DNA of 64,000 nucleotides, from NCBI GenBank assembly GCA_965238005.1, contig OZ250165.1, forward strand, positions 224,001 through 288,000, read 5' to 3'. The position numbers were made by a program, and so were the translations under genes. Shown one piece after another: positions 16,027 to 53,787 of this stretch (position 1 is the first letter of the stretch; every line of letters starts with the position of its first letter). The notes under the pieces are model-generated. The model was not told the origin of the DNA and ran no database searches. It saw only the letters and a program-made list of their open reading frames with translations. Source of the DNA: Longimicrobiales bacterium (GTDB lineage: Bacteria; Gemmatimonadota; Gemmatimonadetes; Longimicrobiales; Gaopeijiaceae).

Positions 16027-16027
16027 G

Positions 16028-26789: not shown

Positions 26790-27280
26790 TACCGCTGTCG
26801 ACGCCCAGAACCACGCGATCGGGCTTCATGAAGTCGTCGACGGCCGCCCCCTCCTTGAGAAACTCGGGGTTGGAGCAGACGTGGACCTTGTGGTCCGTCT
26901 CCGCCTCGATGGCTTCGCGAACCTTCGCCGCGGTCCCCACTGGCACCGTGCTCTTGGTGATGACGATCTTCTCGCCGTTCATGGCCCGGCCGATGGTCCG
27001 GGCCGCATCGAGCACATGCTGGAGGTCAGCGGAGCCGTCCTCGTCGGGGGGCGTGCCCACGGCAATGAAGATGATCTCGGAGGCCCGGACGGCCTCTGGG
27101 ATGTCGGTGGTGAAGGTGAGGCGGCCGGAGCGGAGGTTCCGCTCCACCAGGGGCTCGAGGCCCGGCTCGTATATGGGATCTCGCCGGCGTTCAGGCGGGC
27201 GATTTTGCCGTCGATGATGTCGGCGCAGATGACGTCGTTGCCGGCCTCGGCCAGGCAGGCACCGGCTACGAGGCCGACGA
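26790..27280 (-). pseudogene. ugd: ugd 5' fragment, frameshifted
   Basis: [14 protein letters not shown]...[10 protein letters not shown]; high identity to about 20210-20695. Confidence 0.9.
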
Positions 27281-27359
27281 TCCTCTCCGTCGTGACGGCC
27301 AGCGAGCTCCTCCACGGCGGGGAACAGCCTCGAGGAGGCCGGGAAGATCGCCCAGCCGA

Positions 27360-27649
27360 CCACCCGATCCACTTCCTCGGTCTCGATCCAGCGATAGATG
27401 GTGCGTCGGCCAAAGCCCAGTTCACGGGCGATGGCCGCCTAATGCCTTCTTCGAGATAGTGTCTGAGCAACACGTGCTTCTCCCTTCCATACATCGCGCC
27501 TCCGACGTGTGAGTGAAGTCGCGAAGGTTGGGTGATCGGCCGCGAGGACGCCCAGCTAGTAGAGCACACGGCCCTCCAGCCCAAGCTACAGGACCGCCGA
27601 GTGTGAGATTTCGTCCGCCACTTCTGTGCAGTTTTGGGCCCCTCTAACA
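27360..27649 (-). mobile_element. IS21-family left-end remnant
   Basis: MYGREKHVLLRHYLEEG / [19 protein letters not shown]; terminus TGTTAGAGGGGCCCAAAACTGCAC. Confidence 0.6.
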
Positions 27650-27685
27650 CACGGAAGGCTTGGGGCGAACAGAGCTGGATGAGCG

Positions 27686-28474
27686 TCACTGGGCCACGAC
27701 ATAGCCCAGGACGTGATTCAGAATGCCGAGGAATTCACGAGCTACCAGCAACACGTCCCGTCGATGCCGCCACCAATCTGATGGATCGAAGGGATCACGC
27801 GTGGCCGCGCGGACGACCCCCGGCGGACCCCCGTTTGCCACCCGATTCCAGATCAATCGAACCCGACGCGTATGGACCTTCGAGGTGACGAGTATCACTG
27901 GGAGGGTATCCCGGGCCAGAGCCCGCGCCGCGACCTTAAGTTCCTCGAACGTGCCACCCCGAAAACGCTCCTCGGGCACCACGATGGCCGAGTCAGGAAT
28001 CCCGAGTCGTACGAGAACCTCACGCGTTCTCACCATTGACTCAGCGAGCTCAACACCCAGTTCTCGCAGCATCTGCTGTTGCTCCGAGAAGCCTACTTGT
28101 ATGAGCATGAGATTAGGGGCCCATCCTGCGTGATATATCCTGGCCGCCTCGATCTCTCGGACCGGCAGATCCCCACCAAGGACGATGATGGTCGAAGCGG
28201 ATCGTAGAGGATCCTCCACGATCAGGAACGCCGCGGCAGTCCTGAGAGCGGGCCTCCAGCCGAGGATGATGATTAGGACCACTCCGAACACACCGCCTGC
28301 CCAACGCGCCAATCGGCCGCGATTCTTCCCCGCGTGCGCCGGGATCGCCTTCGGCTCCCCTTGCCGGATCGTCTCACTCACGTCGCCGCTCCCCTCACAA
28401 CTGGATCGACCGATCTCGACCGCACCGACAAGCCCTGATCGCCGAAGAATCCGTAGCGGCGAAGGTAGTAGCAT
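27686..28474 (-). CDS. YdcF/DUF218-family membrane protein; start uncertain
   Basis: TM segment, IIVLGG, GTFEE, ILVTSKVHTRR, WW...REF. Confidence 0.8.
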   Translation of the reverse strand: MLLPSPLRILRRSGLVGAVEIGRSSCEGSGDVSETIRQGEPKAIPAHAGKNRGRLARWAGGVFGVVLIIILGWRPALRTAAAFLIVEDPLRSASTIIVLGGDLPVREIEAARIYHAGWAPNLMLIQVGFSEQQQMLRELGVELAESMVRTREVLVRLGIPDSAIVVPEERFRGGTFEELKVAARALARDTLPVILVTSKVHTRRVRLIWNRVANGGPPGVVRAATRDPFDPSDWWRHRRDVLLVAREFLGILNHVLGYVVAQ

Positions 28475-28805: not shown

Positions 28806-29284
28806 TCAGTCGTCGACCGCCGCCCCTTCCTTGAGAAACTCGGGATTGGAGCAGACGTGGATCTTGTGGTCCGTCTCCGCCTCGATGACCTCGCGAACCT
28901 TCGCCGCCGTCCCCACCGGAACCGTGCTCTTGGTGATGACGATCTTCTCGCCGTTCATCGCCCGGCCTATTGTCCGAGCGGCGTCGGGACGTGCTGGAGA
29001 TCCGCCGAGCCGTCCTCGTCGGGGGGCGTGCCCACTGCGATGAAGATGATCTCGGAGGCCCGGACGGCCTCTGGGATGTCGGTCGTGAAGGTGAGGCGGC
29101 CCGATCGGAGGTTCCGCTCCACCAGGGGCTCGAGGCCCGGCTCGTATATGGGGATCTCGCCGGCGTTCAGGCGGGCGATCTTGTCCTCGATGATGTCGGC
29201 GCAGATGACGTCGTTGCCGGTCTCGGCGAGGCAGGCGCCGGCTACGAGGCCGACGTATCCTGTTCCGATGAGTGCTACGTGTAT
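28806..29284 (-). pseudogene. ugd: ugd 5' fragment (start codon ATA, frameshift, ends AAVDD)
   Basis: High identity to the 5' part of ugd; directly downstream of wecB. Confidence 0.9.
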
Positions 29285-29500
29285 GCGAGATCGGGGTTGG
29301 AAGGGACGAGGGGCAGAATGAATGGAGTCGGCCGGAGGACAGTCGAATGAGTCCCCTGCCGCAGTAGTCTATCGCAAACGGGGCGGAAGTGCACTCGGCG
29401 CCGGACTGGAGTGGAACTGGATGACGCCACACGACGGCCGACCGTTACCAGTCCTGACTTCTCAGCGTGCCTAGACGGGCGCGATGGCTTCCCGCGCCCC

Positions 29501-33923: not shown

Positions 33924-34940
33924 ATGAGCCGCCAGTTGTTTCAGTACCACACGGTGATGGGCTACCACTTCATCCCCGGAATCAGGGCACGCATTGACCA
34001 TGAAGGTGGCGGGTATCTGGTACGGGCCAACGGATCGGGCTTCCGGTGCGAGCACGAGTTCAGTGCCGCGAAGCCGCCGTCCGTCTTCCGGATCCTGCTG
34101 TTCGGCGACTCGTTCACAGCGGGCGACGGCGTCAGCAACAAGCACCGCTACGGCGACGTGCTCGAAAGAGCCCTGCCCGGCAGCCAGGTATTCAACTTTG
34201 GCCTTCCGGGCACGGGCACCGACCAGCAGTACCTGATCTATCGAGAGCTGGCGGCGGGGCTGGAGCACGACCTTGTCGTCGTCGGCGTCGTGGTCGAAAA
34301 CATTTGACGCGTCGTTGCCCGCTATCGCCCTTACGCCACACAGGATGGGAAGGAGATCTTCCTCGCGAAACCGTACTTTACCCGGTCGCGGGGGGGCGAG
34401 CTTCTGCTCCACCATGTTCCTGTGCCGAAGGAGTTCGTTGCCCCGGAGAAGGTGGATTCAAAGGAGAGGGCTCACTTCGACCGCGGTGGTCGGTTTGCTT
34501 CATTGCGCCGGATGGTGAACCGTCTCGGACCACGGTTCAAGGCCTCTGCGCAGCGCGTCACCCGGTACCAGCCGCTCCCCGGCTACAACAGTCCGGCGGA
34601 CCCAGCTTGGAAGCTCATGAAGGCGATCCTCGCCACGTGGGCGAGCGAGAGCCGGGCACCGCTGATGATCGTCCCGATTCCGATCTACATGTACGTGGAG
34701 GAGACCGCCTCCCCGAAAGCCTACCAGGCACGCTTCCGGGAGCTGGAAGCCCTTTCGGGGGTCACGGTTCACGATCCTCTCCCCGCCTTCCACGCACTGC
34801 CGCCCGATCAGCGACGGTCTCTGCGATTTCCGCAGGACGTGCATCCCACGCCCGAGTTTCACCGAATCCTCGCGGAGTCACTAGCAACTCGCATCACAAC
34901 GTTCAAGGAACTCGAGCAGGCCAACGAAGCATGCCGGTAA
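33924..34940 (+). pseudogene. SGNH/GDSL-family protein with in-frame TGA at 34305-34307
   Basis: GDSFT, NFGLPGTG, VENI*RV and DVHPT all lie in one frame. Confidence 0.8.
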
Positions 34941-36769
34941 TCGTCCTCGGGATTTCCGCCTTCTACCACGACTCGGCGGCGGCCATCGTCCGGGACGGGG
35001 AGATCGTCGCTGCGGCCCAGGAGGAGCGCTTCTCGCGGAAGAAACACGATCCGCGGTTTCCCCGCAACGCGATCAACTACTGCCTCGAGGAGGCATTCAT
35101 CGAGCCCGACGAGTTGGACGCGGTGGTTTTCTACGACAACCCCGTGTTGAGCTTCGATCGGATCATCAAGTCTCTGCTCACGATGGCCCCGGGCAGCGAG
35201 AACCAGTGGCTTAGAGCGGCGCGCTCGTTCCTCGGCGTCAAGCCCTTCGTGACGGGCTACGTCCGGAGGATGCTCAAGGTCGAAGTTCCGGTGATGTTCA
35301 CGCGCCACCACCTGGCCCACGCCGCATCCGCGTTCTACCCGTCCCCTTTCGAGCGGGCCGCCATCCTAACGATCGACGGTGTCGGTGAGTGGGCCACCAC
35401 CAGCGTCGCCTGGGGCGAGGGTACAGAAATCACGACGCTGGACGAAATCCATTACCCGCACTCACTCGGCCTGCTCTATAGCGCGTTCACGTATTATTGC
35501 GGCTTCAAGGTGAACTCCGGTGAGTACAAGCTGATGGGCCTGGCGCCGTACGGCGAGCCCCGCTATGTGGATCGGATCCGGGACAAGCTGATCTTCTCGA
35601 AGCCCGACGGATCGTTCCGTCTGGACACCGGCTACTTCGGCTACCTGGAGTCCGCCCTGATGACTAACGAGCACTTTCACGAACTCATGGGGGGGCCACC
35701 GCGAAAACCGGAGTCCCGGATCACCCGGCGAGAAATGGACATCGCGGCGTCCATCCAGAAGGTCACCGAGGAGATCGTCGTGGGCCTAGCCCGGCACACC
35801 CGAGAGACCACCGGCATGAAGAACCTAGCCCTCGCCGGCGGTGTGGCCCTCAACTGCGTGGCCAATAGTGTGCTGTTGCGCGAGGGGATCTTTGATCGAA
35901 TCTGGATTCAGCCCGCAGCCGGCGACGCCGGCGGCGCCCTCGGGGCGGCGCTCCTGGGTTCGCACCGGCGGTTCGGCGTGCCACGGAAGATCCTGGCCTC
36001 CGGCCAGGACGCGCAAATGGGAAGTTACCTCGGCCCCAGTTACACCCCGGCGGAGGTGCAAGCCTTCCTCGATCGACATGACTACCCGTACGAGGTCGTG
36101 GAGGACACCAAGGAGCGCGCTGAGAGGATTGCCGGGCTGCTCGCCCACGGGAAGGCGGTCGGTCACCACTCTGGGCGTATGGAGTTCGGACCGCGCGCAC
36201 TCGGTGCACGCTCGATCCTGGGCGATCCGCGGCGCGCGGACACTCAGTTGCTAATGAATATCAAGATCAAGTACCGCGAGTCGTTCCGCCCCTTCGCCCC
36301 CTCGGTGCTTGCGGAGCGCTCGAGCGACTACTTCGAGATGGAGGGTGAAAGTCCCTACATGTTGCTCGTGGCGCCGGTCTGCGAGAAGCGACGAATCGCC
36401 ATGGACCGCTCGGCATTTGACGCGGGCGACGACGATCTTCTCGCCGTCGTGCGCCTGGAGCGGAGCGACATCCCGGCGGTAACCCATTTCGACTACAGCG
36501 CCCGAATCCAGACCGTGAGCCGCAAGGACCACCCGGTCTACTATGCGGTGATCGAGGCATTCGAACGCATGACCGGTTGTCCCGTAGTGGTGAACACCTC
36601 CTTCAACGTTCGCGGGGAGCCCATCGTCTGCTCCCCACAGGACGCTTACCGCTGTTTCATGCGGACCGCGATGGACGCCCTTGTTCTGGAGGACTTTCTC
36701 CTTCTCAAGAGCCAGCAGCCGAAGTTCGAGGACGACGAGTCCTGGAAGGACCGATATGAGCTCGATTGA
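34931..36769 (+). CDS. Carbamoyltransferase (NodU/CmcH family)
   Basis: LGISAFYHDSAAA, QEERFSR, HHLAHAASAF, DGVGE, GGVALNC, EFGPRALG, NTSFNVRGEP. Confidence 0.95.
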   Translation: MPVIVLGISAFYHDSAAAIVRDGEIVAAAQEERFSRKKHDPRFPRNAINYCLEEAFIEPDELDAVVFYDNPVLSFDRIIKSLLTMAPGSENQWLRAARSFLGVKPFVTGYVRRMLKVEVPVMFTRHHLAHAASAFYPSPFERAAILTIDGVGEWATTSVAWGEGTEITTLDEIHYPHSLGLLYSAFTYYCGFKVNSGEYKLMGLAPYGEPRYVDRIRDKLIFSKPDGSFRLDTGYFGYLESALMTNEHFHELMGGPPRKPESRITRREMDIAASIQKVTEEIVVGLARHTRETTGMKNLALAGGVALNCVANSVLLREGIFDRIWIQPAAGDAGGALGAALLGSHRRFGVPRKILASGQDAQMGSYLGPSYTPAEVQAFLDRHDYPYEVVEDTKERAERIAGLLAHGKAVGHHSGRMEFGPRALGARSILGDPRRADTQLLMNIKIKYRESFRPFAPSVLAERSSDYFEMEGESPYMLLVAPVCEKRRIAMDRSAFDAGDDDLLAVVRLERSDIPAVTHFDYSARIQTVSRKDHPVYYAVIEAFERMTGCPVVVNTSFNVRGEPIVCSPQDAYRCFMRTAMDALVLEDFLLLKSQQPKFEDDESWKDRYELD

Positions 36770-37100
36770 CCGTTGCCTTCCCGAAAAACGCCTGCGGCAG
36801 TTCTACAAGGAGCGCCTGACGGTCGCCGCCGAGAAGCTGCGAGAACGGAAGGTGAGGCTCATGCCTCTCGGACCCGAGCCGAACAGCGGCACGTGGTACG
36901 TCGCCCTCTCGCCGGACGAACCGGAGTTCATCGAGTTCGAAGGGGAACAATGGGGGTCGACCCTGCGCGCGCTGTGGGAAGCTCAAGGCTTACCCGAGCT
37001 CACCGAGTTGGCCGAACCCCTCGCCGAGCTTGCTCGCGAAATGGAACTCGGCGAAGACGAGTCGAGCGATGTCTCCCCGTTTATCTATGTCATGTACTGA
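36756..37100 (+). CDS. 114-aa soluble protein ending SPFIYVMY
   Basis: Overlaps the carbamoyltransferase stop; acidic linker then aromatic C-terminal hexapeptide. Confidence 0.75.
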   Translation: MSSIDRCLPEKRLRQFYKERLTVAAEKLRERKVRLMPLGPEPNSGTWYVALSPDEPEFIEFEGEQWGSTLRALWEAQGLPELTELAEPLAELAREMELGEDESSDVSPFIYVMY

Positions 37101-37112: not shown

Positions 37113-38282
37113 ATGACGGCCGACGTTGCCGAAGAGAGGGACTGGGTCGGCTCCCTCCACGGGCCCTTTCGGGAAGCGTTCTGCGACTCGATTCGAGCGC
37201 TTTCTCTGGCCCGCCTCCAGAAATACCCGACTCCTAAGAACGCGGGTCTTCCGTTCGGCCAAGAGGCTCGCGTCCTCCAACGCTTTCTGTCCGGACGGAG
37301 CTCGCTGCTCGATCCCTCGGGTCTGTCCCGCGCCTACCTTTCCCTCGCATCGAGCCGGGACCGGCTTCTCTACCGAGCGTTCATCCTGGGGCAGGCTCTG
37401 CCCCGGGCCTGGTGGCTGGACGCGATCGGCTCGGACGCGGTTGCTGGCTGGCTGGATCGCTCCCTCCTGTTGACGACGCCGGAGGGGAACCTGTGCTGCC
37501 GCTTCCGGGTCATCGCGGTGGGAGACGTGACCGTGGTGGCCGATCACGAGAACCCCTCGCTTCCGAACCGCGTTCACATCGGCCAGGACTCTCTCAACTT
37601 GCTCGAGTTTCTTCTTCGCGAGGCGCCGACCGAGGCCGGGCGATTCCTGGACGTAGGCACCGGCTCCGGCCTCATCCTCCTTGCCATGGCCCGAGGCCGC
37701 GACGAAGCTCTGGGGATCGACATCAACCCCCGGGCCGTGACTCTCGCGCGGGTCAACGCCGCGCTCAACCGGAGCCGCGGGTGTAGGGTGGAAGAGAAAA
37801 ACGCCCTCGGGCTCGGATCCTCGGAAGGAGCCTTCGACCTCGTGACCTGGAATGCGCCCTTCATGTTCTTGCCGGAAGGCGAGAGGGACCGGCACGTCGA
37901 CGGGTACGGAGGCCACCTGGGCATCGCGTTGACCCTGGATTTCGTCGAGCGTCTTCCCAACCTTCTCGGCGCGAACGGTGTCGCCTACATCCTTACCTCC
38001 GCGCCCGTTCTCCAGACGGGCGAGAACAAACTGGAAACGGAAATCGCCGCACGTGCGGAGCGGCTCAACCTAGACGTCGTCGCTCACGTGTTGCAGGCGT
38101 TCTGGAACCCGGCCCTTCGAGAGTTTCACCGGCGTCACGCGATTCGCCACTTCGAGAGCGTGATCTTGAAGATTTCTTTGGGAGGAGGCCGCGTGCGACG
38201 TATCGCCCCACCCATGAGCAGGAGGGCCGTCGACGCCGCACGCTCGTGGCTTTATGGCGCTCTCGGGAGCGCAAAGCCGTGA
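37113..38282 (+). CDS. Class I SAM methyltransferase (HemK-like motif)
   Basis: LDVGTGSG, DINPRA, WNAPF. Confidence 0.85.
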   Translation: MTADVAEERDWVGSLHGPFREAFCDSIRALSLARLQKYPTPKNAGLPFGQEARVLQRFLSGRSSLLDPSGLSRAYLSLASSRDRLLYRAFILGQALPRAWWLDAIGSDAVAGWLDRSLLLTTPEGNLCCRFRVIAVGDVTVVADHENPSLPNRVHIGQDSLNLLEFLLREAPTEAGRFLDVGTGSGLILLAMARGRDEALGIDINPRAVTLARVNAALNRSRGCRVEEKNALGLGSSEGAFDLVTWNAPFMFLPEGERDRHVDGYGGHLGIALTLDFVERLPNLLGANGVAYILTSAPVLQTGENKLETEIAARAERLNLDVVAHVLQAFWNPALREFHRRHAIRHFESVILKISLGGGRVRRIAPPMSRRAVDAARSWLYGALGSAKP

Positions 38283-39172
38283 GGCGAGTCTTCCGCTCCC
38301 TTTTCGTGGAGTTCGGAGTTCGGTCCGGTGGTGCTCGGTGGTTCCTCCATTCCATGAAGAGCAGGACGAGACGGGAGCCGCGCCCTCTCGTGCGCGTTGT
38401 GAACCTACACGGCACGCCGGCCCGGGACCGGGAGCGCTTTCGCAGACAGGTCGAATGGGTCTGCAGGCACTTCACGCCCGTCAATGCGCAGGCCCTCAGC
38501 TCTCTCTGGGAGACCGGCACCGAGCCGGTCCCGAAGGGAGAAAAGCCGTGGGTGCTCTTCACATTCGATGATGGCCTGGCCAGTAACTACCATATCGCGG
38601 CGCCGGTCTTGGAGTCGATGAACGCCACGGGCCTTTTCTTCGTGGTTCCTGGCTTCTCCCAGTGCAAAGACGATGAGGCAAGGTCTTTTTACTACCATCG
38701 ACTGATGGGCGTATCTGGGTCCTCCCTCGTTGACAGCGCTCCGGAGGAATGGACTCCCATGTCCCCGGAGCAGATCGCCGAGCTTGCCTCGCGGGGGCAC
38801 GATATCGGCAACCACACGTTCTCTCATTCAAGGCTCAACAGGGTGCCGGTATCCGAGCTTCATAAGGAGATCGTGGAGAGCGCGCGGGTCATTCGCCAGT
38901 GGACGAGCAAAGACGTCGACACCTTCACCTGGACCTTCTCCTGGGAGTCGATCAACGCGGAAGCCTGGAAGGTCGCAGGGGACCATCATTCCCTCGTCTT
39001 CGCTCCTTGTCCTGGAACGTTGGACCCCGCTCTGGACTCACCCAAGCTGATCTGGCGCTCCAACGTGGAGGCATGGTACGGCCGCTCCGAGTACCGGTTC
39101 ATGTACTCGGGCCTCGCGGATCCGTTCTGGCGCTCCCGCAGAAACCGACTGCAAGACATGCTCGGAACGTGA
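38279..39172 (+). CDS. Polysaccharide deacetylase (CE4)
   Basis: TFDDG, IGNHTFSH. Confidence 0.85.
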   Translation: MRRVFRSLFVEFGVRSGGARWFLHSMKSRTRREPRPLVRVVNLHGTPARDRERFRRQVEWVCRHFTPVNAQALSSLWETGTEPVPKGEKPWVLFTFDDGLASNYHIAAPVLESMNATGLFFVVPGFSQCKDDEARSFYYHRLMGVSGSSLVDSAPEEWTPMSPEQIAELASRGHDIGNHTFSHSRLNRVPVSELHKEIVESARVIRQWTSKDVDTFTWTFSWESINAEAWKVAGDHHSLVFAPCPGTLDPALDSPKLIWRSNVEAWYGRSEYRFMYSGLADPFWRSRRNRLQDMLGT

Positions 39173-41917: not shown

Positions 41918-43519
41918 GAGTCTGCGCCGCAGAACCCTGCGGCGGCTATCTTTGGTGGTAGCGAAGGCATTGGGAAGGCTTGCGGATCACCGAGGGGGGT
42001 GAATGGGAACGACATTTCGACCGTACGATCCGGAGCAGATGTTGTTGCTGCCTCCGGATCTTCGGGAGTGGGTGTCGGAGGGTCATTTGGCGCACCATGT
42101 GAGCGACCTGGTGGACGCGGTGGAGCTGAGCGCGTTCTACGGGCGGTACCGGGGGGACGGGCGGCGCAACTCGCCGTACGACCCTCGGATGATGGTCAAG
42201 GTGCTGATCTACGCGTATGCGACGGGCACCTTCTCGTCGCGGAAGATGGCGAGGAAGCTGGAGGAGGATGTCGCGTTTCGGATGCTGGCGGCGGAGAACT
42301 TCCCGAAGCACCGGACGCTGTGCGAGTTCCGCAAGCGCCATCTCGGGGATTTCCGGGCGGTGTTTGTGGAGGTGGTGATGCTCGCGCGGGCCTTGGGGCT
42401 GGCGGGGCTTGGCAGGGTGTCGGTGGACGGGACGAAGGTTCGGGCGAACGCGAACAAGCGCAAGGCGATGAGCTACGGCCGGATGGTGACCGGGGAGCCT
42501 CGGCTGGAGGCGGAGATCCGGGGGCTGTTGGAGAGGGCCGAGGCGGTGGACGAAGCGGAAGACGAGCGCTACGGCGAGGAAGCATGCGGAGACGAGGTGC
42601 CGGAGGAGCTCAAGCGGCGCGAGGACCGGCTGGCGGCGATCCGGGAGGCGAAGGCGCGCCTGGAAGCCGAGCAGAGAGCGGCGGACGACGCACGGGGCCG
42701 CAAGCCGGGGCAGACGCGCAACCCGAAGGGCGGCAGGCCCTACAAGCGGGAGTACGGAGAGCCGGACGAGGCGGCGCAGAGCAACTTCACGGACCCTGAG
42801 AGCCGGATCATGAAGACGAGTTCGGAGGGGTTCCAGCAGTGCTACAACGCACAGACGGTCGTGGAGGGGGAGAACCAGCTGGTGGTCGGGGCCGAGGTGA
42901 CGGACAACGCGAGCGACCAGGGCCAGCTGGTGCCCATGGTCGACGCGGTGGCGCAAGCGTACGGCGAGACGCCGGCGCAGGTGCTGGCGGACACGGGCTA
43001 TTGCAACGAGCGGGATCTCGAGGAACTGGAAGAGCGAGACATCGACGGGTATGTGGCGCTGGCCCGGGAGGGCAAGGCCGCCCCCACGGTTGACAAGGAG
43101 GAATATCCGGCGAAAGTCCGCATGGCGGAGAAGCTGGCGAGCGAAGATGGCCGCAGACGCTACGCACGGCGAAAGTCGCAGGCCGAGGCGCCCATCGGCT
43201 GGATCAAGGAAGTGATGGGCTTTCGACGATTCAGCTTCCGGGGCCTCGAGAAGGTCCGGGCCGAGTGGACCCTCGTGTGCCTGGCACTCAATGTGAAGCG
43301 GCTGCACACCCTTCAGGCGGCATGACTGCACGAGGGTTCACCCGCATCTGCCGGCGCGAGGGCTCTCGTAGCTCTCTTGCCCCCCCCAACGCATCCATTC
43401 CGCTCTCCCGATCCGTCGCAGACACAAGTCCTCAACCTCCCAATCACCCGGATCCGCCTCGCCGCGGACGGCTCGATGACCATTCGGCTCAGTCAGCTGT
43501 GCTTCTGCGGCGCAGACTC
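41918..43519 (+). mobile_element. IS1182-family insertion sequence with CTAG target duplication
   Basis: 17-bp terminal IR GAGTCTGCGCCGCAGAA / TTCTGCGGCGCAGACTC flanked by CTAG on both sides. Confidence 0.9.
42003..43325 (+). CDS. IS1182-family transposase
   Basis: YDPRMMVKVLIYAY, SSRK, DGTKVRANA, TDPESRIM, YNAQ, ADTGY. Confidence 0.92.
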   Translation: MGTTFRPYDPEQMLLLPPDLREWVSEGHLAHHVSDLVDAVELSAFYGRYRGDGRRNSPYDPRMMVKVLIYAYATGTFSSRKMARKLEEDVAFRMLAAENFPKHRTLCEFRKRHLGDFRAVFVEVVMLARALGLAGLGRVSVDGTKVRANANKRKAMSYGRMVTGEPRLEAEIRGLLERAEAVDEAEDERYGEEACGDEVPEELKRREDRLAAIREAKARLEAEQRAADDARGRKPGQTRNPKGGRPYKREYGEPDEAAQSNFTDPESRIMKTSSEGFQQCYNAQTVVEGENQLVVGAEVTDNASDQGQLVPMVDAVAQAYGETPAQVLADTGYCNERDLEELEERDIDGYVALAREGKAAPTVDKEEYPAKVRMAEKLASEDGRRRYARRKSQAEAPIGWIKEVMGFRRFSFRGLEKVRAEWTLVCLALNVKRLHTLQAA

Positions 43520-44760: not shown

Positions 44761-44851
44761 CCTTTAGCAAGTGGCCAGTTTCCATCCCAGTCGAACAGTC
44801 CCACTTTGTGTCAGCCCTGGTAGCACGCATTCTCCCCCGAAATGTCACGCC

Positions 44852-45943
44852 ATGCCCATCGCGCACGCCATCTGGAAGGTCGGGGAGCGCCCCCTTCCGC
44901 TATCCCCTGGGCGCCTGGCAAGCGAACAACAGTTGGAAGAAATGATCGTGTCAGATCCCGGGATCATTTCGAGCGAGTGGATGCTCATCGGCCGACAAGA
45001 GGTGACCAGCCACGGCGGTCGCATCGATCTGCTCGCAATAGCTCCGGATGGCTCACTCGTCTTGATGGAGTTGAAGCGGGACCGTACGCCTCGCGAACTC
45101 ATTGCGCAGGCGCTTGACTACGCATCTTGGGTAGAGGATCTCGGTGCTGAAAAACTTGCACAGATGTATCGGCGCTTCTCCGATGGTGGCAGCCTGGATG
45201 ACGCGTTCAAGGAACGGTTCGGCGTCGACCTCGATGAGGAAACGCTCAACCAGTCTCACCAGATCATCGTCGTCGCGGCCGAACTCGATGACTCTACAGA
45301 GCGCATCATCGGATACCTCAATGCGCGTGACCTCGCGATCAACGTCGTCTTCTTTCAAGTCTTTGAGTTCGATGATGAGCTCTTGCTGAGCCGCGCGTGG
45401 CTCATCGATCCAGGGGAGACCCAGGCGAACGTCATCAGAACAACTAGGAGCAAGGGGCAGAAGGAGCCGTGGAATGGAGAATACTACGTGTCGTTTGGGC
45501 CTCTCCGCTCAAGAGACTGGGAAGACGCCCGTCATTTCGGATTCATCAGCGCGGGTGGCGGGAGGTGGTACAGCCAGACTTTGAGGATGCTGTCACCGGG
45601 CGATCGTATATGGGTGAATATCCCGAAGACTGGATACGTTGGCGTCGGTGAGGTGACGGAGGCGGTAACCCCAGCGGAGGACTTCAATGTTCGAACGGCG
45701 GAACGTGAGCAACCTTGTCTCGAGGTCCTGAAGCATGCGGACCTATACAAGCAGAAGATCCAAGACCCCGAAAAGGCCGAGTATTTTGTGCGAGTGCGGT
45801 GGATTGACACAGTACCAGTGGAAAAAGCGCTCAACGAGGTCGGGTTGTTCGGCAATCAGAATACAGTCTGTCAGCCGACAGCCCCCAAATGGAGGCACAC
45901 CGTTGACCGCCTGAAGACTCACTTCCCGAAGTGGCAGGATTGA
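44852..45943 (+). CDS. NucS/DUF91-like PD-(D/E)xK endonuclease with C-terminal PUA/EVE-like domain
   Basis: EQQLEEMI, IGRQ, GRIDLLA, MELKR, AQALDY; C-terminal PGDRIWVNIPKTGYVGVG. Confidence 0.75.
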   Translation: MPIAHAIWKVGERPLPLSPGRLASEQQLEEMIVSDPGIISSEWMLIGRQEVTSHGGRIDLLAIAPDGSLVLMELKRDRTPRELIAQALDYASWVEDLGAEKLAQMYRRFSDGGSLDDAFKERFGVDLDEETLNQSHQIIVVAAELDDSTERIIGYLNARDLAINVVFFQVFEFDDELLLSRAWLIDPGETQANVIRTTRSKGQKEPWNGEYYVSFGPLRSRDWEDARHFGFISAGGGRWYSQTLRMLSPGDRIWVNIPKTGYVGVGEVTEAVTPAEDFNVRTAEREQPCLEVLKHADLYKQKIQDPEKAEYFVRVRWIDTVPVEKALNEVGLFGNQNTVCQPTAPKWRHTVDRLKTHFPKWQD

Positions 45944-46064
45944 TTTCGTGAGTCCAGAGTAAGCCGGGCCTGTTGAACCCTGCGCGTTGGCATCCAACGG
46001 GTAAGGGGCCTGCGTCGAAGCGATAGAACCACGAAGTGACCGCTCGCCGAATTAGCCTACCCGG

Positions 46065-46850
46065 CTAGATAGCATCCGGCACCGGTGGCCAGTCAATCGA
46101 GAACTCATGACACACGGCTTGCCAGGTGGCCGCCCCGAGGACCCCTCCCGCAATGGCATCTCGCTCTTCGTCCGTCCGATGAGGGAGGCTCGGGATCAGA
46201 AGATCGGGCTGTAGCTGTTCATCCGAGGCTGCTGACCAATGCTCCGGCACCAGCATCGGGTCTGGGTCCTCCCCTTCCACCAGGAGTAAGCCAAGCACCG
46301 CGCGGCCAGCTGCGATCTCCCAAGTAGCGTCCATGTGACGAATGAGCTGACTTCGCTTCCTCATCCACGTCGTCTTGCTCGTGGTCGACCGTTCGGTGCG
46401 CTTCCCCTCCACCACGAGAACCACACTGTCGGTCTCAAGGCAGGCGTCGGGAAACGAATCGCCTTCGAGAACGAACCATTGTCGTCCACGCTCGCTGGCT
46501 CGGAGCCGCCTTAGCGCCTCCTGCACCACTTTCGGATCGCCGCTCGCCAGTGCCCGCCGTTTCCTCACCGTCTCAGGGTGACCGCCAGACTTGGCCACCT
46601 GTTCCTCTGAGACATTCTGGACCAGCCATTCAAGGAGGCTCAGCGGCGGCGCAAGGGGGCGTTCGTTCGACCCCCACCATGACTGATGGCCCGGGACGAG
46701 CACACCGAGTTGTACCGGGAGGGCAACATCAGCAACGCGGGATCCCAAGCGCACTAGAAGTGGAAGCCATGACCTACCGCTTGAATCCGACCGCAGGAGA
46801 TGGTCAAACACTGGGACCACCCGAGTCTTTGAGGAATCGAACTTGCCCAT
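46065..46850 (-). CDS. Putative PD-(D/E)xK nuclease
   Basis: EGDSFPDACLET...VVEGKRTE...QLIRH. Confidence 0.55.
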   Translation of the reverse strand: MGKFDSSKTRVVPVFDHLLRSDSSGRSWLPLLVRLGSRVADVALPVQLGVLVPGHQSWWGSNERPLAPPLSLLEWLVQNVSEEQVAKSGGHPETVRKRRALASGDPKVVQEALRRLRASERGRQWFVLEGDSFPDACLETDSVVLVVEGKRTERSTTSKTTWMRKRSQLIRHMDATWEIAAGRAVLGLLLVEGEDPDPMLVPEHWSAASDEQLQPDLLIPSLPHRTDEERDAIAGGVLGAATWQAVCHEFSIDWPPVPDAI

Positions 46851-46899
46851 GAGCCAACCCTGGGAGAATGAGTTACTCCGACGCTGGACAGCGCCTTGA

Positions 46900-48060
46900 T
46901 TATGCCATGATCTTCTCGACGGATTCTGGGCCAAAACCATCCCAAAATTGCTCCGTACGGTGCCAATCAATGAAGCGAAATCGCTCCTTCAGCACAGTCG
47001 CCTCATCCGTTGAAGCTGGACGACTGACAAAGCGCAAGGGCGTCTTCTTCAAGCCCGGAATGCCGGGATCATAGCTCTGGTAGTTGTCGACGACTTCGTA
47101 GAGAATCTGTCGTAGGTAATCATCGTGCGGAGGGAGGGAAAAGCCGATTATCGCGAGCCCGAAGTTGGCGGAGCCAGCGCCTTGGAGCCCGTACCAGAAT
47201 TCTTTGAGGGGGTTCACGTAAAAGAGCTTGGCGGTCGATGGTGCGAGGATCAACGGTGATTCGACGTTCAAGCGACAACGCTCGAAGTATGCATCAAGGT
47301 CTCGAACGCGGAAGATTTTCTTCAAAGGATCATCTGGAAATCGAGGACCTGAGGTGATCGGTTCTGGCGTGAACAATTCGGAATCACCGAAGACCGGATG
47401 CCGCGTGGCTGGATCAAGCCCAGAGGCCTTTGCACTTTCGATCTCCCCTTCGATGGGTCCCAAATCGAACCAGTCGATAGACCCGTGCAGCTTCAGAACG
47501 ATTACGTCGCTGCGGGCAGAATCCACTGTCGCGCCTGTTTCGCGAACCTCCGAGTAGAGGTGTGGGCATAATCGGTAAGGCTTGCCGACCCTCTCTAACG
47601 CAGTTTCGACCAGCGTGTCGTAATTGAAGGTCAGTATGTAGTCGTCGGGGAGGAGCGTGTCGACAAATGTCAGATACGGCTTCCAGGCGTCCGAGTTCAT
47701 CGCCTTTTGGCGTTCATGGAGTTCAAGGGAGATCAGGTTACGGACAACATGTTGGCTCTCGTTGCCGGTCGAGGTCCACGTATCACTCCCGCGAAGCCCA
47801 AGAAAATGTTCAAGGTCGAGAAATCCCATGAATTCCTCGAAATCGATCGTTTCCTCGGTGAGCATGACGCCCCCGCTGGCGGCCTTGTACTTGATGAAAC
47901 GCTGCAGGTCCGGTCGCAGAAAGCTCTCGTAGAAGGTGGTTTTCCGCGCGCGCGCAAGAACTGATGACCAGAGCTCCAGCCCAAGAGGCAATCCGGCGTA
48001 ACGCGAGAACCCAGCCCCAAGGATGATGATTCGAAACCGTTTGTTAGAGGATGGAGCCAT
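46900..48060 (-). CDS. SIR2-like (SIR2_2) putative NADase
   Basis: ILGAGFS, TFNYDT, KLHGSIDW, IIGFSLP. Confidence 0.85.
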   Translation of the reverse strand: MAPSSNKRFRIIILGAGFSRYAGLPLGLELWSSVLARARKTTFYESFLRPDLQRFIKYKAASGGVMLTEETIDFEEFMGFLDLEHFLGLRGSDTWTSTGNESQHVVRNLISLELHERQKAMNSDAWKPYLTFVDTLLPDDYILTFNYDTLVETALERVGKPYRLCPHLYSEVRETGATVDSARSDVIVLKLHGSIDWFDLGPIEGEIESAKASGLDPATRHPVFGDSELFTPEPITSGPRFPDDPLKKIFRVRDLDAYFERCRLNVESPLILAPSTAKLFYVNPLKEFWYGLQGAGSANFGLAIIGFSLPPHDDYLRQILYEVVDNYQSYDPGIPGLKKTPLRFVSRPASTDEATVLKERFRFIDWHRTEQFWDGFGPESVEKIMA

Positions 48061-48207
48061 TGTGTCAATCGGCCAAACGGTTCCTTGACCCAGGGCGGAG
48101 CGCCCCAAAGGCTGGTGGGTCTAATTCCAAAACCTTACAACGTGCCAATAGGACGAGCAAGCAAGCATTGGCAGGCGAATCCGTTACGGTGCCAACGATG
48201 GCCAATC

Positions 48208-48316
48208 CCCGCGAGAACCCACCGAGCTGCCTGTCTACGATGGATCACGGCCTTGGCGCCTGGTGTCGGTGGCATCGAACTGTCCCACGCCAGAGACCGG
48301 CAAATCAGCGCTCTTC
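48208..48316. repeat. Element-end repeat copy B
   Basis: CCGCGAGAACCCACCGAGCTG...GGTGTCGGTGGCATC...ATCAGCG. Confidence 0.75.
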
Positions 48317-48895
48317 CGTCTTGAATTGGGCAGCCACCCAGGCCTCGACGTACGCACGGTCGAGAATCGAGGCCGCCGCCCAAAGGTGCCACGCATGTGA
48401 ATCGAGGCCGTTAGCCAACTGGGCGTAGGCTTTGGGGCGAGGCTGCGCCAACCCCGCTTTCCAGTTCCGCAAAGTCGATGGGTGGACGCCGAGAACATCG
48501 GCGAGGCGGCCCTGGCTCGCGCAAAGAGCCCTCACCGCGTCTGGAACCGAATCAGGAGGTTGGAGGCCTCGCGGCACAGGGTCGTAATCCTCATATGCGA
48601 GATACGACAGCGGGTCACCGTCCAGAACCCGTTTTATCCTGAGCGCGACTGCCCACATCTGGGCGACATGGCGTTGGTGTACACAGAGCTCCGCAAGTCG
48701 CCGCCTGAAGAGTCGGCCCATCCCACCGGACGATGACCAGTTGCGGACTGTCCCTGGGGACAAGCCGAGGAAGTCGGCAAGCCACGCTTGCGGGAGGCAG
48801 AGCTCGTTCACGAAGCCTCCTGCCGCGAGATTGCGATAGAACTCCTCGACCCCATTGGTTACAGCGGCCACAATCGCAGCCGGCTGTTCGGTCAT
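48305..48895 (-). CDS. Protein with two XRE-like HTH motifs
   Basis: LADFLGLSPGTVRNW and LADVLGVHPSTLRNW. Confidence 0.6.
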   Translation of the reverse strand: MTEQPAAIVAAVTNGVEEFYRNLAAGGFVNELCLPQAWLADFLGLSPGTVRNWSSSGGMGRLFRRRLAELCVHQRHVAQMWAVALRIKRVLDGDPLSYLAYEDYDPVPRGLQPPDSVPDAVRALCASQGRLADVLGVHPSTLRNWKAGLAQPRPKAYAQLANGLDSHAWHLWAAASILDRAYVEAWVAAQFKTEER

Positions 48896-49307
48896 CGGGA
48901 AGACCTCAACCAGATCGTGCCATTCCGCACGGATATGGACAATTTATCATTCAGTCGAATCGCAAGCTCTCACGCGGGATATGTCCCGATGGGATCTAGA
49001 TCGTTTTCGGGCTAAGTCTTGGAACGAAATGGACAGATGCTAACGTTTTTTTGAAGGAGGCCAGCACGAGGAGGGTTACGAGCAGCTCGCTGACCAGATT
49101 CGATCCGAGGAACTCCCAGATCGAATAGAGGAGGGACAAATCCACGACTGTGGACCTAATGCATGCATCGTGAGATTATCATGGTGGACAATATAGCACT
49201 GATTGGCGAAGAGGTATAACGACTTTGGGCTTTAAGCTGCCGCACCACCATGCCCCGCCCCAGAGTGCAAATAGCAAGACGTGCGCTCTCTGACCCGCGC
49301 GGCTTAA

Positions 49308-49616
49308 CGGCCATCCCTCTTCTCCGCGTGAACCTACCGAGCTGGCGATCTGCGATGGATCATGGCCTTGGCCCCTGGTGTCGGGTCAGCTCACGTCGCA
49401 CCACATGCCGCCAGATCAACGCCTGATGCGTAGGGTCGCCGTGACACACATTGAGCCTCGTTACTCAGCTGGCAACCTCTGGCTAGCTTAGCTTCTTCAC
49501 ACACGCCCATTTTCACCAATTTCGCGCAGTTCTGGGGGAATCTTCGCTATTCTCCGGTAGATGGCTTCCCGGTTCTCACCATGTTGATACATCCGAACAT
49601 AGAGAGAAGCATAGAG
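49308..49616. repeat. Element-end repeat copy C with AACATAGAG/AGCATAGAG doublet
   Basis: TCTCCGCGTGAACCTACCGAGCTGG...; doublet at 49596-49616. Confidence 0.75.
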
Positions 49617-49725
49617 ACCCTTCCGTTGGCAGGCCCCAGGGTCGTCCGGTCCCAAGCCTAGCTCTCGCCAAGATTCACGGAAGGGTCGCACCCCCTACCT
49701 GGGACGCCCTCCGTCTTGCCCTACG

Positions 49726-51147
49726 TCACATATAGAAGCTGTAGCGTGCAGGAAGGTGATCTGACGTGCTCAGATAGGGGAGAATCTCCCCGACCTTGCG
49801 TGATGCCTTGAGTGTGATCGGGTCCCGGTTGTCGAACTGCGTGTCATTCCAATTCATCTTCGTCAAAGCGAGAACCTCACGCGCCAAGAACTCCGGTGAG
49901 TGATCTGAGCGGAAGATCTCGATCGAGAGCGGACGGGGGACGTACTGCCCGGGGTAGGTCGAATAAAAGTCGACCGACCCTCTTGTATAGAGGATGTTGC
50001 GAGTCGGCGTCCGTAGGAAAGTACCTCTGAGCGGTGGGTAGCGTCCGGCACGAAAGAGACGGGTGTTGCTCCGTCGAATCCACATGAGCGAGATGTCGTC
50101 GATCCGATGGTCCTCACATGCCGCCTCAAACCCGTCTGCTTCCGAAGGAAGGAAACGGGAACTCTTGTGCAGGACCAGACGCGCCGGATCCGTTCCGTGT
50201 TCCTGGCGATAGCGGTCAAGCGCAAGGCTAAGTAGCCCGTATGCGCCCTCCCGATCAAGGTGTGGTTGGCGGTCCTCCTTTGAGACCTTTGCTAACCCGC
50301 CGCGGATGATCAAGCCATCCCCGCGCTGACTGAATACCTGCGCAACGCTTGTGTGAAGCTGCTCGTCGCCCCCCTCGAAGAAGCTCACTCCGACGTAGCA
50401 AACCGAATAGTCATCGACAGCTGTCTGAATCCGCCATGGAGTACCGCCTGCCTTGTAGTAGAGCGCCGTAAACAGATTCCAGGCGCGCGTGGCCTCATCT
50501 TGGAGGCGTATTGCTCCCCGCAGCCTGACAGGCAACTCTTTCCGGTACTGCGGGCGATAGGTGGTTGGCAGAACGATCTGGATCGGCACTGGCAGCGCCT
50601 GCATCCCTCGCGCCTTTAACAGCCTTCGAAAGTCGAGCCCGTCGGCAGGTTCCTCATCCTCGGTCTTGTACCCCCGTAGCATGGCGCGAAGGATCTCCAT
50701 GGGAGGAGCACACACGACAACCTGAACGGCCGGAGACTCCGCCAACACCTCCAGTTCGCGAATGAAGAGCTCGACCGAACCAGCCACCAAAGCGTCCGGT
50801 GACGCCTTATCCGCTAGGCGTTCGAACTCCTTCTGTGGAATGGTCCTACAGTTCCTGGAAGCGACGTCCAACGTTGATCGGAAAGTCCGGTTGGAAGTGA
50901 ACCCAGGAAACCGAACGAAGAGCTGCGGCTGCGCGCTCTTCTTCGCCTCGATCGGGGAGGAACATTTTCCCAACCAGGTCGTCAGGTGCTCGACCGTCTC
51001 AGCTGTCCCGACTACCCCGAGTCGAAGAGAGCGCAGTTCTGTGCGATCCACGTCGAGGGGGCCGTGCTCCATGATCCCGAACCGGATATCCACGTGTGGT
51101 CCGGTCCCGAACTCCAGCTCGGGCTCAGAGAGATGGACCGCCTTCAT
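49726..51147 (-). CDS. Short prokaryotic Argonaute (MID-PIWI, catalytically inactive)
   Basis: EPELEFG, LQDEATRAWN..TALYYKAGGTPW, CYVGVSFF, HKSS, PPLRGT, ALTKMNWN; 473 aa. Confidence 0.92.
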   Translation of the reverse strand: MKAVHLSEPELEFGTGPHVDIRFGIMEHGPLDVDRTELRSLRLGVVGTAETVEHLTTWLGKCSSPIEAKKSAQPQLFVRFPGFTSNRTFRSTLDVASRNCRTIPQKEFERLADKASPDALVAGSVELFIRELEVLAESPAVQVVVCAPPMEILRAMLRGYKTEDEEPADGLDFRRLLKARGMQALPVPIQIVLPTTYRPQYRKELPVRLRGAIRLQDEATRAWNLFTALYYKAGGTPWRIQTAVDDYSVCYVGVSFFEGGDEQLHTSVAQVFSQRGDGLIIRGGLAKVSKEDRQPHLDREGAYGLLSLALDRYRQEHGTDPARLVLHKSSRFLPSEADGFEAACEDHRIDDISLMWIRRSNTRLFRAGRYPPLRGTFLRTPTRNILYTRGSVDFYSTYPGQYVPRPLSIEIFRSDHSPEFLAREVLALTKMNWNDTQFDNRDPITLKASRKVGEILPYLSTSDHLPARYSFYM

Positions 51148-52247
51148 TCGTCAAAAAAAGAAGGCTCTGCAGCATTATCGGGTGCAGGCAGTTCCTGCGC
51201 ACCCCATTCAGCCTCATCTAGGCTCACGTCGATCGGGATCTCCACAAGTCTACCGAAACGGATATAGGGGTAGCCGAGTCCGAGCGGGTCGTCCTCGTCA
51301 CTGAGTAGGCTCGCCCACATCACTTCGCGGGTCGGGGACTGTTTCAACGAGCGATATCGAGCAGTTCGGCCGGGGCCACCCTTCCGGCCAGGCAGAAAAA
51401 AGTAGTACCTGTGTTTAGCGTTCCATCGGACACCAAACTGATCAAGCCGAGATGAGAGGGAGTGGTTAAGTAGCCGCACGAAGTCCCGTAGAAGATCGGG
51501 GCTATCGGAGCGCGAAAAGTGTGCCGTTTCGATCGACTCCACAGTGCCTCGGTCTACAACGGAGCCCCACGGCTCAGCATCCAGATCAAGGAATGAAAAG
51601 ATCTTGCCTTCCTTGAGGAACCACTCACCGGTTGGGTCATTCTGACCATCTCGGAGGAGTTGCCAGACCTCTTTGTGTGTCGAGCATTCCGTGGCTGCAA
51701 CCTGAACGGAGGGGCCAAACTCGGTCACCTCGAGCAGATTGCTCAAGAGCGTCTCAGGCTTGGGTGGCGGCGAGAGGTACACTCCCAAGCCCTCAGGCCG
51801 CGCCTGTCCGGCAAGTTGAGCCGCCGCGCTGACGTCGAATCGGTCCTTCGACTTGTCGAATTGCACGCTTCGCAACGCACGTCTCTCCGGTATCTCAAAG
51901 TACGACTTCACCGAGACCCAATAAGCTTCATCGGTCTTGGGTCGGGTCACCACGAGAAGCACCGGCGCGTTTCCACCCAACCAGTATGCCAAGTCACGCT
52001 GATCTACAGGCCAGCGGAATGAGGACTCGGACTCGCTTGGAAAGGGAGCGTCCGTCGTCTTGACCTGCACCAGAATGACGAAGTTCGTGGCCATGCCGCC
52101 CTGGCCACGAAGCTCAATCGTCCCATCGATGCCCGCGTCGATCGTGGACGGATTCCATACATGGCCCATCTCGAGCACGACGCGCTCGACGAGGTTCACC
52201 CCACGCTGACCGAGGACAGTACTCTTGTGGATTTGCTTCGGTTTCAT
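51144..52247 (-). CDS. DUF4365 (DREN) nuclease-APAZ partner
   Basis: GQRGVNLV, IDAGIDGTIE, VQVKT, DLAYW, ETLLSNLL; ATGA overlap with the Argonaute. Confidence 0.85.
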   Translation of the reverse strand: MKPKQIHKSTVLGQRGVNLVERVVLEMGHVWNPSTIDAGIDGTIELRGQGGMATNFVILVQVKTTDAPFPSESESSFRWPVDQRDLAYWLGGNAPVLLVVTRPKTDEAYWVSVKSYFEIPERRALRSVQFDKSKDRFDVSAAAQLAGQARPEGLGVYLSPPPKPETLLSNLLEVTEFGPSVQVAATECSTHKEVWQLLRDGQNDPTGEWFLKEGKIFSFLDLDAEPWGSVVDRGTVESIETAHFSRSDSPDLLRDFVRLLNHSLSSRLDQFGVRWNAKHRYYFFLPGRKGGPGRTARYRSLKQSPTREVMWASLLSDEDDPLGLGYPYIRFGRLVEIPIDVSLDEAEWGAQELPAPDNAAEPSFFDE

Positions 52248-52407
52248 GCTAGGAACGCTAACGGCAACAGCCCATCTGAGAAGTCCTCGGAGGCGCGTAC
52301 CACCTGCCGAACAAAACGGGCGATCTGACCCACATCCGCAACGACGCGTAGGACCGGTAGGCCGCGCAGGGGCAAAGCCCGACCCCGCACAGGTCCGGGG
52401 TCAGGTG

Positions 52408-53175
52408 TTAGGCGTCACCCCCACCCAATAGCTCGCCGACCAACTTGGGCCGCCATACTCGGCCGATCTCCGAATCATCGCGGATCCGCCCTGAATACAC
52501 TCCCAAGAATGCTGTCACGCTTCCACCCATCCTTAATGCACCCCCCTTGGACAGATACCCACTGGAAGACTGGTACACCACCGGCGAACCAGACATGCCA
52601 CCGCGGGTCGTTGCGTCAATGAGGAACACAGGCTTGTCGTCGTAATTGATGTCAGGATCTGACGCGATGTGACCAGTCTTCCAAATCGGAAACGCGACCC
52701 CGGTAGCAAGGCCGAAGGGGTAGCCGATAATCGAAACGGCCATAGCCGGCTGAAGCCTGACATCGTGCTCGGCCAGCGCGAGGTCAAGCGGATACGTTTT
52801 GATTTCAGGGTCAGCCAAATCAAGCGGAAGCGCCGCGATATCGATCTCCCTTCCGCCGGGGTGTTCAATCCAGAGCGGCTTGGCCTCAGCATCAACCAGG
52901 GGCTGGCTCATGAGCTTCCAGCTACCAAGTTGCTGGGTGTGATGCACGATGACGATCTCGTCGGGCAATGCACCGGCATCGGAAAGCGGCTGATCCGTAT
53001 TGGGGTGCCTCCCAGCCAAAACATGCCAGTTGCTGACGAGATATGACCCTGTATCATCCTGGACAACGAACGCGGATGCTGTGCTTAGTAAGTTCCCACG
53101 CGCCCGCAATTCGACCCGGAGACTCACACAGCTGAGCGGATCGATCGTGATGACTTGTTGATCGGTCACCTGCAT
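52408..53175 (-). CDS. Trypsin-like serine protease
   Basis: LVSNWHV (His), IDIAAL (Asp), GGMSGSPV (Ser); no signal peptide. Confidence 0.85.
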   Translation of the reverse strand: MQVTDQQVITIDPLSCVSLRVELRARGNLLSTASAFVVQDDTGSYLVSNWHVLAGRHPNTDQPLSDAGALPDEIVIVHHTQQLGSWKLMSQPLVDAEAKPLWIEHPGGREIDIAALPLDLADPEIKTYPLDLALAEHDVRLQPAMAVSIIGYPFGLATGVAFPIWKTGHIASDPDINYDDKPVFLIDATTRGGMSGSPVVYQSSSGYLSKGGALRMGGSVTAFLGVYSGRIRDDSEIGRVWRPKLVGELLGGGDA

Positions 53176-53351
53176 GCTCCTGGGGGTAATGGCATATAGA
53201 ACAATCGTATTGCCACACCATGTGTGCCATATAGCACTCCGATGTCGCGAAACGCGAATAATGCCATTGTGTAGACCTTTTGACGCACACCGCTTGGGGG
53301 GCGAGCGGCTTGGTGGTCGTGCTTCCAAGACTCTACAGGGTGCTGAGAGCC

Positions 53352-53582: not shown

Positions 53583-53647
53583 ACCCCTTCGACCGTCATG
53601 CCGAAGGGGTCTCCTGTAACACTATTGCTCACAACGCTTTACATCAG

Positions 53648-53720: not shown

Positions 53721-53787
53721 ATATTGTTATTCTGCAACGACTTACACTGACACTATACCGAAGCAGTGGGAACAATCTTGGTATAGT

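Follow-up and report, generated by a model that had tools for sequence, protein, structure and literature searches.

A 64,000-nt stretch of the genome of a Longimicrobiales bacterium (contig OZ250165.1, positions 224,001 to 288,000 of the forward strand; hereafter the window) contains three overlapping forward-strand genes that, judged from their sequences, are a conserved, widespread and unnamed membrane-free module. The first (33924..34940) is a frame for a soluble SGNH/GDSL protein with the motifs GDS (S63) and DVH (D305, H307). The second (34931..36769) encodes an intact 612-aa class III carbamoyltransferase (CT) of the NodU/CmcH/TobZ type. The third (36756..37100) encodes a 114-aa soluble partner, the predicted carbamoyl carrier, with a helical body, an acidic linker and a tyrosine tail. 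SGNH and CT genes overlap by 10 nt, CT and carrier genes by 14 nt. An initial annotation had described these three overlapping genes, and the CT, the SGNH frame with its GDS...DVH motifs and the 114-aa open reading frame (ORF) ending in PFIYVMY are all present, but it overlooked an in-frame TGA that interrupts the SGNH gene. We consider it probable, by analogy with known shuttles, that the module is a relay in which the CT carbamoylates the tail Tyr, the tail hands the group to the SGNH Ser, and the SGNH protein modifies a glycan.

The known acyl-Tyr shuttle is a route by which acyl groups, loaded by MBOAT or AT3 enzymes, cross the membrane (PMC12148441). In the PatAB and Dlt systems, a Tyr in an FXYXXF tail, activated by a His, accepts the acyl group, which then moves on to an SGNH Ser (PMC12148441). 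In the relay that we propose, the CT would form carbamoyl-AMP from carbamoyl phosphate and ATP and load the carbamoyl group onto Tyr111 of the carrier; the flexible carrier tail would deliver it to Ser63 of the SGNH protein, which would pass it to an acceptor, probably a sugar hydroxyl. Carbamoyl-Tyr and carbamoyl-Ser intermediates, transfer in this direction and a glycan acceptor are what the analogy leads us to favour, the last because of glycosyltransferase, deacetylase, epimerase and aminotransferase neighbours. The relay is made rather likely by gene linkage, the invariance of the Tyr, natural fusions, homology to SxtJ and DUF5989, catalytic residues intact across the families, and the lack of a membrane anchor. 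In the window's own genome, the last step has likely been lost with the interrupted SGNH gene.

With DltB-DltX-DltD and PatA-PatB the module shares an FXYXXF-like hexapeptide with an invariant Tyr, an SGNH Ser-Asp-His triad and a catalytic His in the donor. It differs from them in that the donor is a soluble Kae1/YrdC CT rather than an MBOAT, the proposed group is carbamoyl rather than acyl, carrier and SGNH protein are unanchored, the block II Gly of the SGNH protein is kept, and the last residue of the tail is often Tyr. The module thus works like an MBOAT-SGNH Tyr shuttle, yet it is not a member of that group, having neither an MBOAT nor a membrane anchor. We found no paper joining a carbamoyltransferase to a Tyr shuttle in a literature search that covered few subscription journals and no supplements, where a mention is possible. 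The FXYXXF literature retrieved consisted only of versions of PMC12148441, the main text of which does not contain 'carbamoyl', and a 2026 review (PMC13721041) likewise lacks the word in its first 300,000 characters.

The carrier ends in an acidic linker followed by SPFIYVMY (sequence end ...EDESSDVSPFIYVMY); the C-terminal hexapeptide FIYVMY lies at 37080..37097 on the forward strand, with the codon of the invariant Tyr111 at 37086-37088. In a profile search of 1.84 billion representatives, the carrier family comprised at least 343 clusters with E ≤ 0.001. The terminal motif singled out by the initial annotation is conserved in this family: Tyr occupies position -4 in 149 of the 150 best library matches (the one without it is an unrelated repeat protein of 652 aa), and Y111 is the sole 100% column among 145 normal-length members in a family of ~38% identity. 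Y stands at -4 in all of 148 tails; 112 of these have F at -6, and 144 have F or Y at -1. Because the library profile contained the tail, we used a body-only profile on a set of 160 loci with similarity to the SGNH gene (the best 80 of 212 genome matches and the best 80 of 353 metagenome matches). All 111 carriers found in this way have Tyr at -4; for 105 of them, seeds had already been obtained by searching with the whole protein, and six were new. Grouped at 70% identity they make 78 clusters, and 44 when the level is 50%. Taxa named in the records of the loci are Myxococcota, Gemmatimonadota, Planctomycetota, Acidobacteriota, Spirochaetota, Bacteroidetes, Magnetococcales and WOR-3. Within the window's genome, the pattern [FLY][IVLM]Y..[FY] ends only 3 of 85,189 six-frame segments of at least 30 codons, two of which adjoin the genome's two CT genes; hence its position beside CT genes is not chance. 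The third segment (G000:C1:2366787-2366927) sits between housekeeping genes, and we took it to be a chance occurrence.

The carrier has no hydrophobic segment (best 19-residue hydropathy 0.18). In the AlphaFold model the helical body is ordered (mean pLDDT 83) and linker and tail have low confidence (49-54), which suggests that linker and tail would behave as a swinging arm; in a natural CT-carrier fusion, the predicted tail has a pLDDT of 37-40, with only three alignment rows over that part. A Pfam and NCBIfam scan of the carrier matched no family, Foldseek returned no match, VIA-align gave a best Z of 5.2, to generic helices, and the Atlas returned only unnamed clusters, under 0.9. A word-index homolog search recovered a single carrier relative, two-sequence alignment scans of genome and metagenome contigs recovered no carrier, and a search for longer carrier forms found none; we attribute these blanks to low sensitivity, since fused forms do exist. 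The carrier was not found in 60 relatives, and it occurs in 2 of 251 genomes of its own phylum, its own genome included (tallies over these 251 include one unpublished genome, G210).

Profile searches over all 160 SGNH loci gave the counts of CTs, carriers, MBOATs and neighbouring families that follow. We detected a CT match in 151 loci, and most of the remaining nine stop shortly past the SGNH gene. In most loci, SGNH and CT either adjoin in translation or form a single chain; L082 is an example of an intact triad (SGNH 1292-2302, CT 2296-4131, carrier 4121-4462). Where a full CT is followed by at least 400 nt, a carrier is present in 105 of 106 cases, and with 1800 nt in 94 of 94; the 14-nt overlap of the window's CT and carrier genes recurs in 73 of 108. 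We also searched from the carrier, in three other phyla, scoring 13 candidates per genome, and obtained matches, with the centres counted, in 3, 12 and 4 genomes out of 351 each. Fifteen of the 16 non-centre places were fetched, the sixteenth already being in the set as L006; they comprise 12 full-length carriers and three SxtJ-stop-DUF5989 junctions. All 12 full-length carriers have both a CT and an SGNH gene beside them, five of them apparently repeating earlier loci. The linkage to CT and SGNH genes that the initial annotation had put forward therefore holds from either starting point.

In four cases (L011, L102 at 1766-3901, L119 and P0246), CT and carrier are a single chain; these represent three sequence clusters whose members come from several assemblies. 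One further locus, from one assembly only (L211:2789-6403; G1268:C72), has a 1204-codon ORF in which SGNH (residues 96-431), CT (473-1065) and carrier (1090-1204) follow one another, with the Tyr tail, SVYVMF, at the very end. The carrier is thus either free or fused to its donor CT, in parallel to free DltX and the PatA-fused tail (PMC12148441). We saw no fusion of a carrier to an MBOAT. Separately, a 277-aa ORF on a 1278-bp contig (L124:117-947) joins most of an SGNH protein to the C-terminal third of a carrier; this short fusion may be a deletion or a misassembly.

Residues 16-62 of the carrier (36801..36941, forward strand) are homologous to the C-terminal 47 residues of the SxtJ family (HHalign 79%, E 1.5e-5; reversed control 0.4%), and the carrier tail aligns with the tail of DUF5989 (84%). 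Aligned with SxtJ followed by DUF5989, the carrier scored 95.7% over 97 collinear columns, as against 74.9% with the order swapped, and a genome search with the carrier also reached the SxtJ-DUF5989 junction unprompted. The middle helix alone gave no significant HHalign match, and the body of DUF5989 alone did not align significantly with that of the carrier. The hydropathy of the carrier, 0.18, compares with a median of 2.76 for DUF5989, and the carrier has no transmembrane (TM) helices. Because the alignment is collinear from end to end, we read the carrier as a de-membraned SxtJ-DUF5989 fusion: most simply, it would be an SxtJ tail joined to DUF5989 with the membrane helices lost, in step with an SGNH protein free of an anchor.

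The same genome contains a second cassette outside the window (G000:C1:3311065-3313545, reverse strand), in which SxtJ (PF19588) and a 50-aa DUF5989 peptide ending in APFIYAIF precede a CT 53% identical to that of the window. DUF5989 (PF19451) is found in 77 of the 251 genomes of the phylum. We chose 40 DUF5989 places by score and contig room, and all 40 have a CT, an SxtJ-like ORF and a Tyr at -4, and none has an MBOAT; the statement in the initial annotation that DUF5989 peptides beside CTs end similarly is thus confirmed. SGNH-like ORFs lie within 5 kb in 22 of the 40, mostly with a hydrophobic segment ahead of the catalytic motif. This membrane counterpart of CT, SxtJ and DUF5989, with an invariant Tyr tail and no MBOAT, supports the relay. 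CTs of the soluble type share 56% identity with those of the membrane type; a tree, its membrane set drawn from one phylum, splits the two groups (support 0.91). Our literature search found no paper on DUF5989. SxtK is probably a DUF5989 member, a placement that its size fits. Like the SxtJ-DUF5989 cassette and sxtIJKL, the window module combines a CT, small partner sequences and a GDSL/SGNH protein; it differs from the SxtJ-DUF5989 cassette in that the two partners are joined in a single soluble chain without TM helices and without a Pfam match. Of the sxt genes, sxtI codes for a CT, sxtJ and sxtK for hypothetical proteins, and sxtL for a GDSL lipase (PMC2684587); sxtK is 165 bp long, the function of sxtJ and sxtK is given as 'unknown', and SxtL has been postulated to be a decarbamoylase (PMC2679770). 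No mechanism for sxtJ or sxtK appears in the parts drawn on of a 2025 review (PMC12300590) and a 2026 preprint (10.64898/2026.06.11.731795).

The CT consists of a Kae1-like and a YrdC-like domain (Carbam_trans_N, PF02543, E 1.6e-91; Carbam_trans_C, PF16861, E 1.2e-69), and its relatives in the PDB are found at E values of 1e-76 to 1e-95. It scores 141.6 bits against the NodU equivalog NF041651, for which the cut-off is 1000 bits. In the related enzyme GdmN, the YrdC-like domain produces carbamoyl-AMP from carbamoyl phosphate and ATP, and the Kae1-like domain moves the carbamoyl group onto a hydroxyl with His27 as base (PMC9633730). Residues H13, Y68, H126, H130, D149 and D332 of the CT, all 100% kept in 57 CTs of the triad, correspond to H27, Y82, H133, H137, D156 and D333 of GdmN (roles from PMC9633730). 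The two-domain fold, catalytic His and iron ligands are thus common to this CT and to GdmN, TobZ and NovN-like enzymes. These enzymes carbamoylate small-molecule substrates directly, and a Tyr-tailed partner or SGNH protein is not mentioned in the parts of that paper drawn on (PMC9633730).

Direct action of characterised class III CTs (PMC9633730) suits an alternative in which the small protein acts non-covalently, as an adaptor or activator whose aromatic tail docks SGNH and CT together or plugs an active site; the glycan would then be carbamoylated directly by the CT, and the SGNH protein would perform a separate step. Fusions and linkage demonstrate partnership rather than chemistry, and a carrier body derived from the SxtJ tail behind the membrane helices is a plausible CT-binding element. 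A docking motif should, however, allow replacement of Tyr by Phe, and there is no such change in 111 or in 148 sequences, although the aromatic positions adjoining the Tyr do vary (F, L, Y, S, D; F, Y, H, W). We therefore regard this alternative as unlikely.

The SGNH gene of the window spans 338 codons and matches PF13472 (E 1.5e-12, with the TGA read as X). Translated with table 11, its frame yields pieces of 127 and 172 aa, split by an in-frame TGA at codon 128 (34305..34307, forward strand), where 128 of 150 homologs have Arg. Contigs of four runs (three samples, three studies) cover this position with every letter identical; one of the runs is possibly the window's own source, and the other three have a depth of ~3. 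An assembly error is disfavoured by this agreement, and we rejected recoding, since the CT and carrier genes themselves stop at TGA and the homologous residue is Arg. The TGA is thus likely a real nonsense allele and the window's SGNH copy likely a pseudogene, given the in-frame stop, the Arg of the homologs and the same letters in the contigs of four runs. The family to which it belongs (1552 homologs) appears intact: the catalytic triad columns are 100% kept in 42 sequences, and GDS is present in 118 and D-x-H in 120 of 120 homologs. The window copy has no hydrophobic segment (best 19-residue hydropathy 0.39 in the first 60 residues), and the corresponding value is at most 0.78 across the 120 homologs, by a hydropathy measure only, with no signal-peptide predictor. 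The soluble character claimed for both carrier and SGNH protein is thus upheld by low hydropathy across the family. No PDB sequence was found with the SGNH profile. In one source, SGNH-only members of the family (P0009, P0011, P0012, P0025 and others) are labelled 'carbamoyltransferase', a label possibly carried over from fused SGNH-CT forms.

Several observations weigh against the relay. At the window itself the SGNH gene is interrupted, so that the local copy is unlikely to be a working full relay; the route from CT through Tyr tail to SGNH protein proposed in the initial annotation gains from conservation, linkage and the solubility of the family, and from natural fusions that the annotation did not have, but is likely broken at this point in its own locus. 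Two loci, L047 and L061, carry an SGNH gene of this family with no CT match despite room downstream. No SGNH match adjoins the second cassette of the same genome, and none lies nearby in 18 of the 40 DUF5989 loci. In L055, L081 and L128, SGNH and CT are separated by an MBOAT. For the DUF5989 tail, an outward orientation is predicted (median of 4 K/R before the TM helix and 0 after), away from the cytoplasmic CT, and this would require an unexplained route. A relay in the cytoplasm is harder to justify than one across a membrane, since GdmN and its relatives carbamoylate their substrates without one (PMC9633730). Finally, the block II Gly (G96) of the SGNH family is kept in all 42 sequences (the block being assigned by eye in the alignment), whereas in PatB it is replaced by Ser or Asn, favouring transfer over hydrolysis (PMC12148441). 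The retained Gly may leave the SGNH protein a hydrolase role.

A second alternative builds on that residue: the Tyr would be carbamoylated, but the SGNH protein would be a hydrolase (a decarbamoylase, an editing enzyme or a deacetylase), much as the GDSL protein SxtL has been postulated to decarbamoylate (PMC2679770). The 18 of 40 DUF5989 cassettes with no SGNH protein near them are in its favour. ATP-driven loading followed by plain hydrolysis would, however, be futile; SGNH and CT are adjacent in translation or fused in most loci; and the same type of tail supplies SGNH transferases in Pat and Dlt (PMC12148441). We judge a purely hydrolytic SGNH protein improbable, and prefer transfer by the relay.

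The ability of a CT of this family to use a C-terminal peptide as acceptor is known from the NodU-like StdF, whose carbamoyl acceptor is a Lys in a conserved C-terminal motif of the precursor of a RiPP, a peptide made on the ribosome and modified after translation (PMC13174530). StdF differs from the present system in its stable N-carbamoyl-Lys end product, its fused peptidase and the lack of an SGNH protein or Tyr tail in the parts of that account drawn on. By extension, the small protein could be a RiPP-like precursor or end substrate, its C-terminal core modified by the CT and released or trimmed by the SGNH protein, and methyltransferases are indeed near in some loci. This is very improbable: the body of the small protein is folded, several genomes have the protein joined to the C-terminal end of the CT, its ancestry lies in membrane proteins, and its neighbours are glycan enzymes. 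In 63 long triad loci, we found GT4 glycosyltransferases in 34, polysaccharide deacetylases in 29, epimerases in 18 and DegT aminotransferases in 14, which suggests that the acceptor of the module is a glycan. An all-against-all neighbour comparison took loci L002-L089 as queries, so its cluster sizes are lower bounds; no dedicated peptidase or recognition element was among the named recurrent families of this comparison, which included no profile search for RiPP recognition elements.

MBOATs are present in 24 of the 160 loci and in 20 of the 63 long triad loci; the other 43 have none, and in these the proposed linkage without an MBOAT holds. Each of the 24 nearby MBOATs has its own FIYFQF tail or a separate following peptide ending ...YGRF, so the carrier tail is not the tail of the MBOATs. 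No MBOAT was detected in the window's genome by a profile that we built from the MBOATs of these loci. That SGNH protein and Tyr tail serve an acyl shuttle with an MBOAT encoded elsewhere, the CT being merely a co-clustered tailoring enzyme, might be argued from the 20 long loci with an MBOAT and the three in which it separates SGNH from CT, but is scarcely credible given the 43 long loci and the window's genome without one, the tail or peptide of every MBOAT seen, a carrier fused to CTs and never seen fused to an MBOAT, and the lack of membrane anchors on carrier and SGNH protein. Independently of this, small DltX-like ORFs ending ...YGRF stand directly behind tail-less MBOATs in 16 of the 160 loci (L070:492-734, L005:5428-5751, L083:4709-4927, L150:5424-5663 and others). 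Those scanned have no Pfam match, and an AMP-binding enzyme adjoins one; these ORFs and MBOATs are likely an unnamed Dlt-like system outside Gram-positive bacteria.

A broader form of the relay, to which we give slightly less than an even chance, is that a widespread class of bacterial carbamoylation acts through covalent carbamoyl-Tyr and carbamoyl-Ser, both cassettes deriving from one ancestral machine with a membrane form (CT, SxtJ, DUF5989 and an anchored SGNH protein) and a soluble form (CT, fused carrier and free SGNH protein, in one case all three in a single polypeptide). The SGNH protein would then be the carbamoyltransferase that sets specificity. If true, this would give SxtJ and SxtK a function and turn SxtL from a decarbamoylase into a transferase.

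Downstream of the module in the window lie two accessory neighbours on the forward strand: an S-adenosylmethionine-dependent methyltransferase (37113..38282), found in 9 of the 63 long triad loci, and a polysaccharide deacetylase (38246..39172; PF01522), of the family counted above. UDP-glucose dehydrogenase fragments and a DDE transposase at 26979-27689, 28806-29432 and 42003-43325 flank the cluster, in keeping with decay of a glycan locus. Elsewhere in the window, an NAD-dependent epimerase and a UDP-glucose dehydrogenase, both of them nucleotide-sugar enzymes, each contain an intein with a LAGLIDADG domain (13636-16044 and 18354-20726, both on the reverse strand). The region 44771-55539, with NucS-like, SIR2-like, DUF4365, trypsin-like, integrase and transposase ORFs, is a possible defence island. 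Elsewhere in the genome are two dense arrays of 17 tRNA genes each (G000:C1:1035994-1037821 and 4451264-4453598).

If the relay operates as proposed, it would extend the Tyr shuttle to a new donor fold, a new transferred group and a fully soluble setting. Such a soluble module is amenable to study with purified proteins, or with one natural fusion, free of membranes. The relay would provide a function for DUF5989 and for the unnamed carrier family with its 343 or more clusters, and would explain why one branch of CTs always has small partners, including sxtJ and sxtK, which have gone unexplained in print from 2009 to 2025. It would also reveal an overlooked source of carbamoylated glycans.

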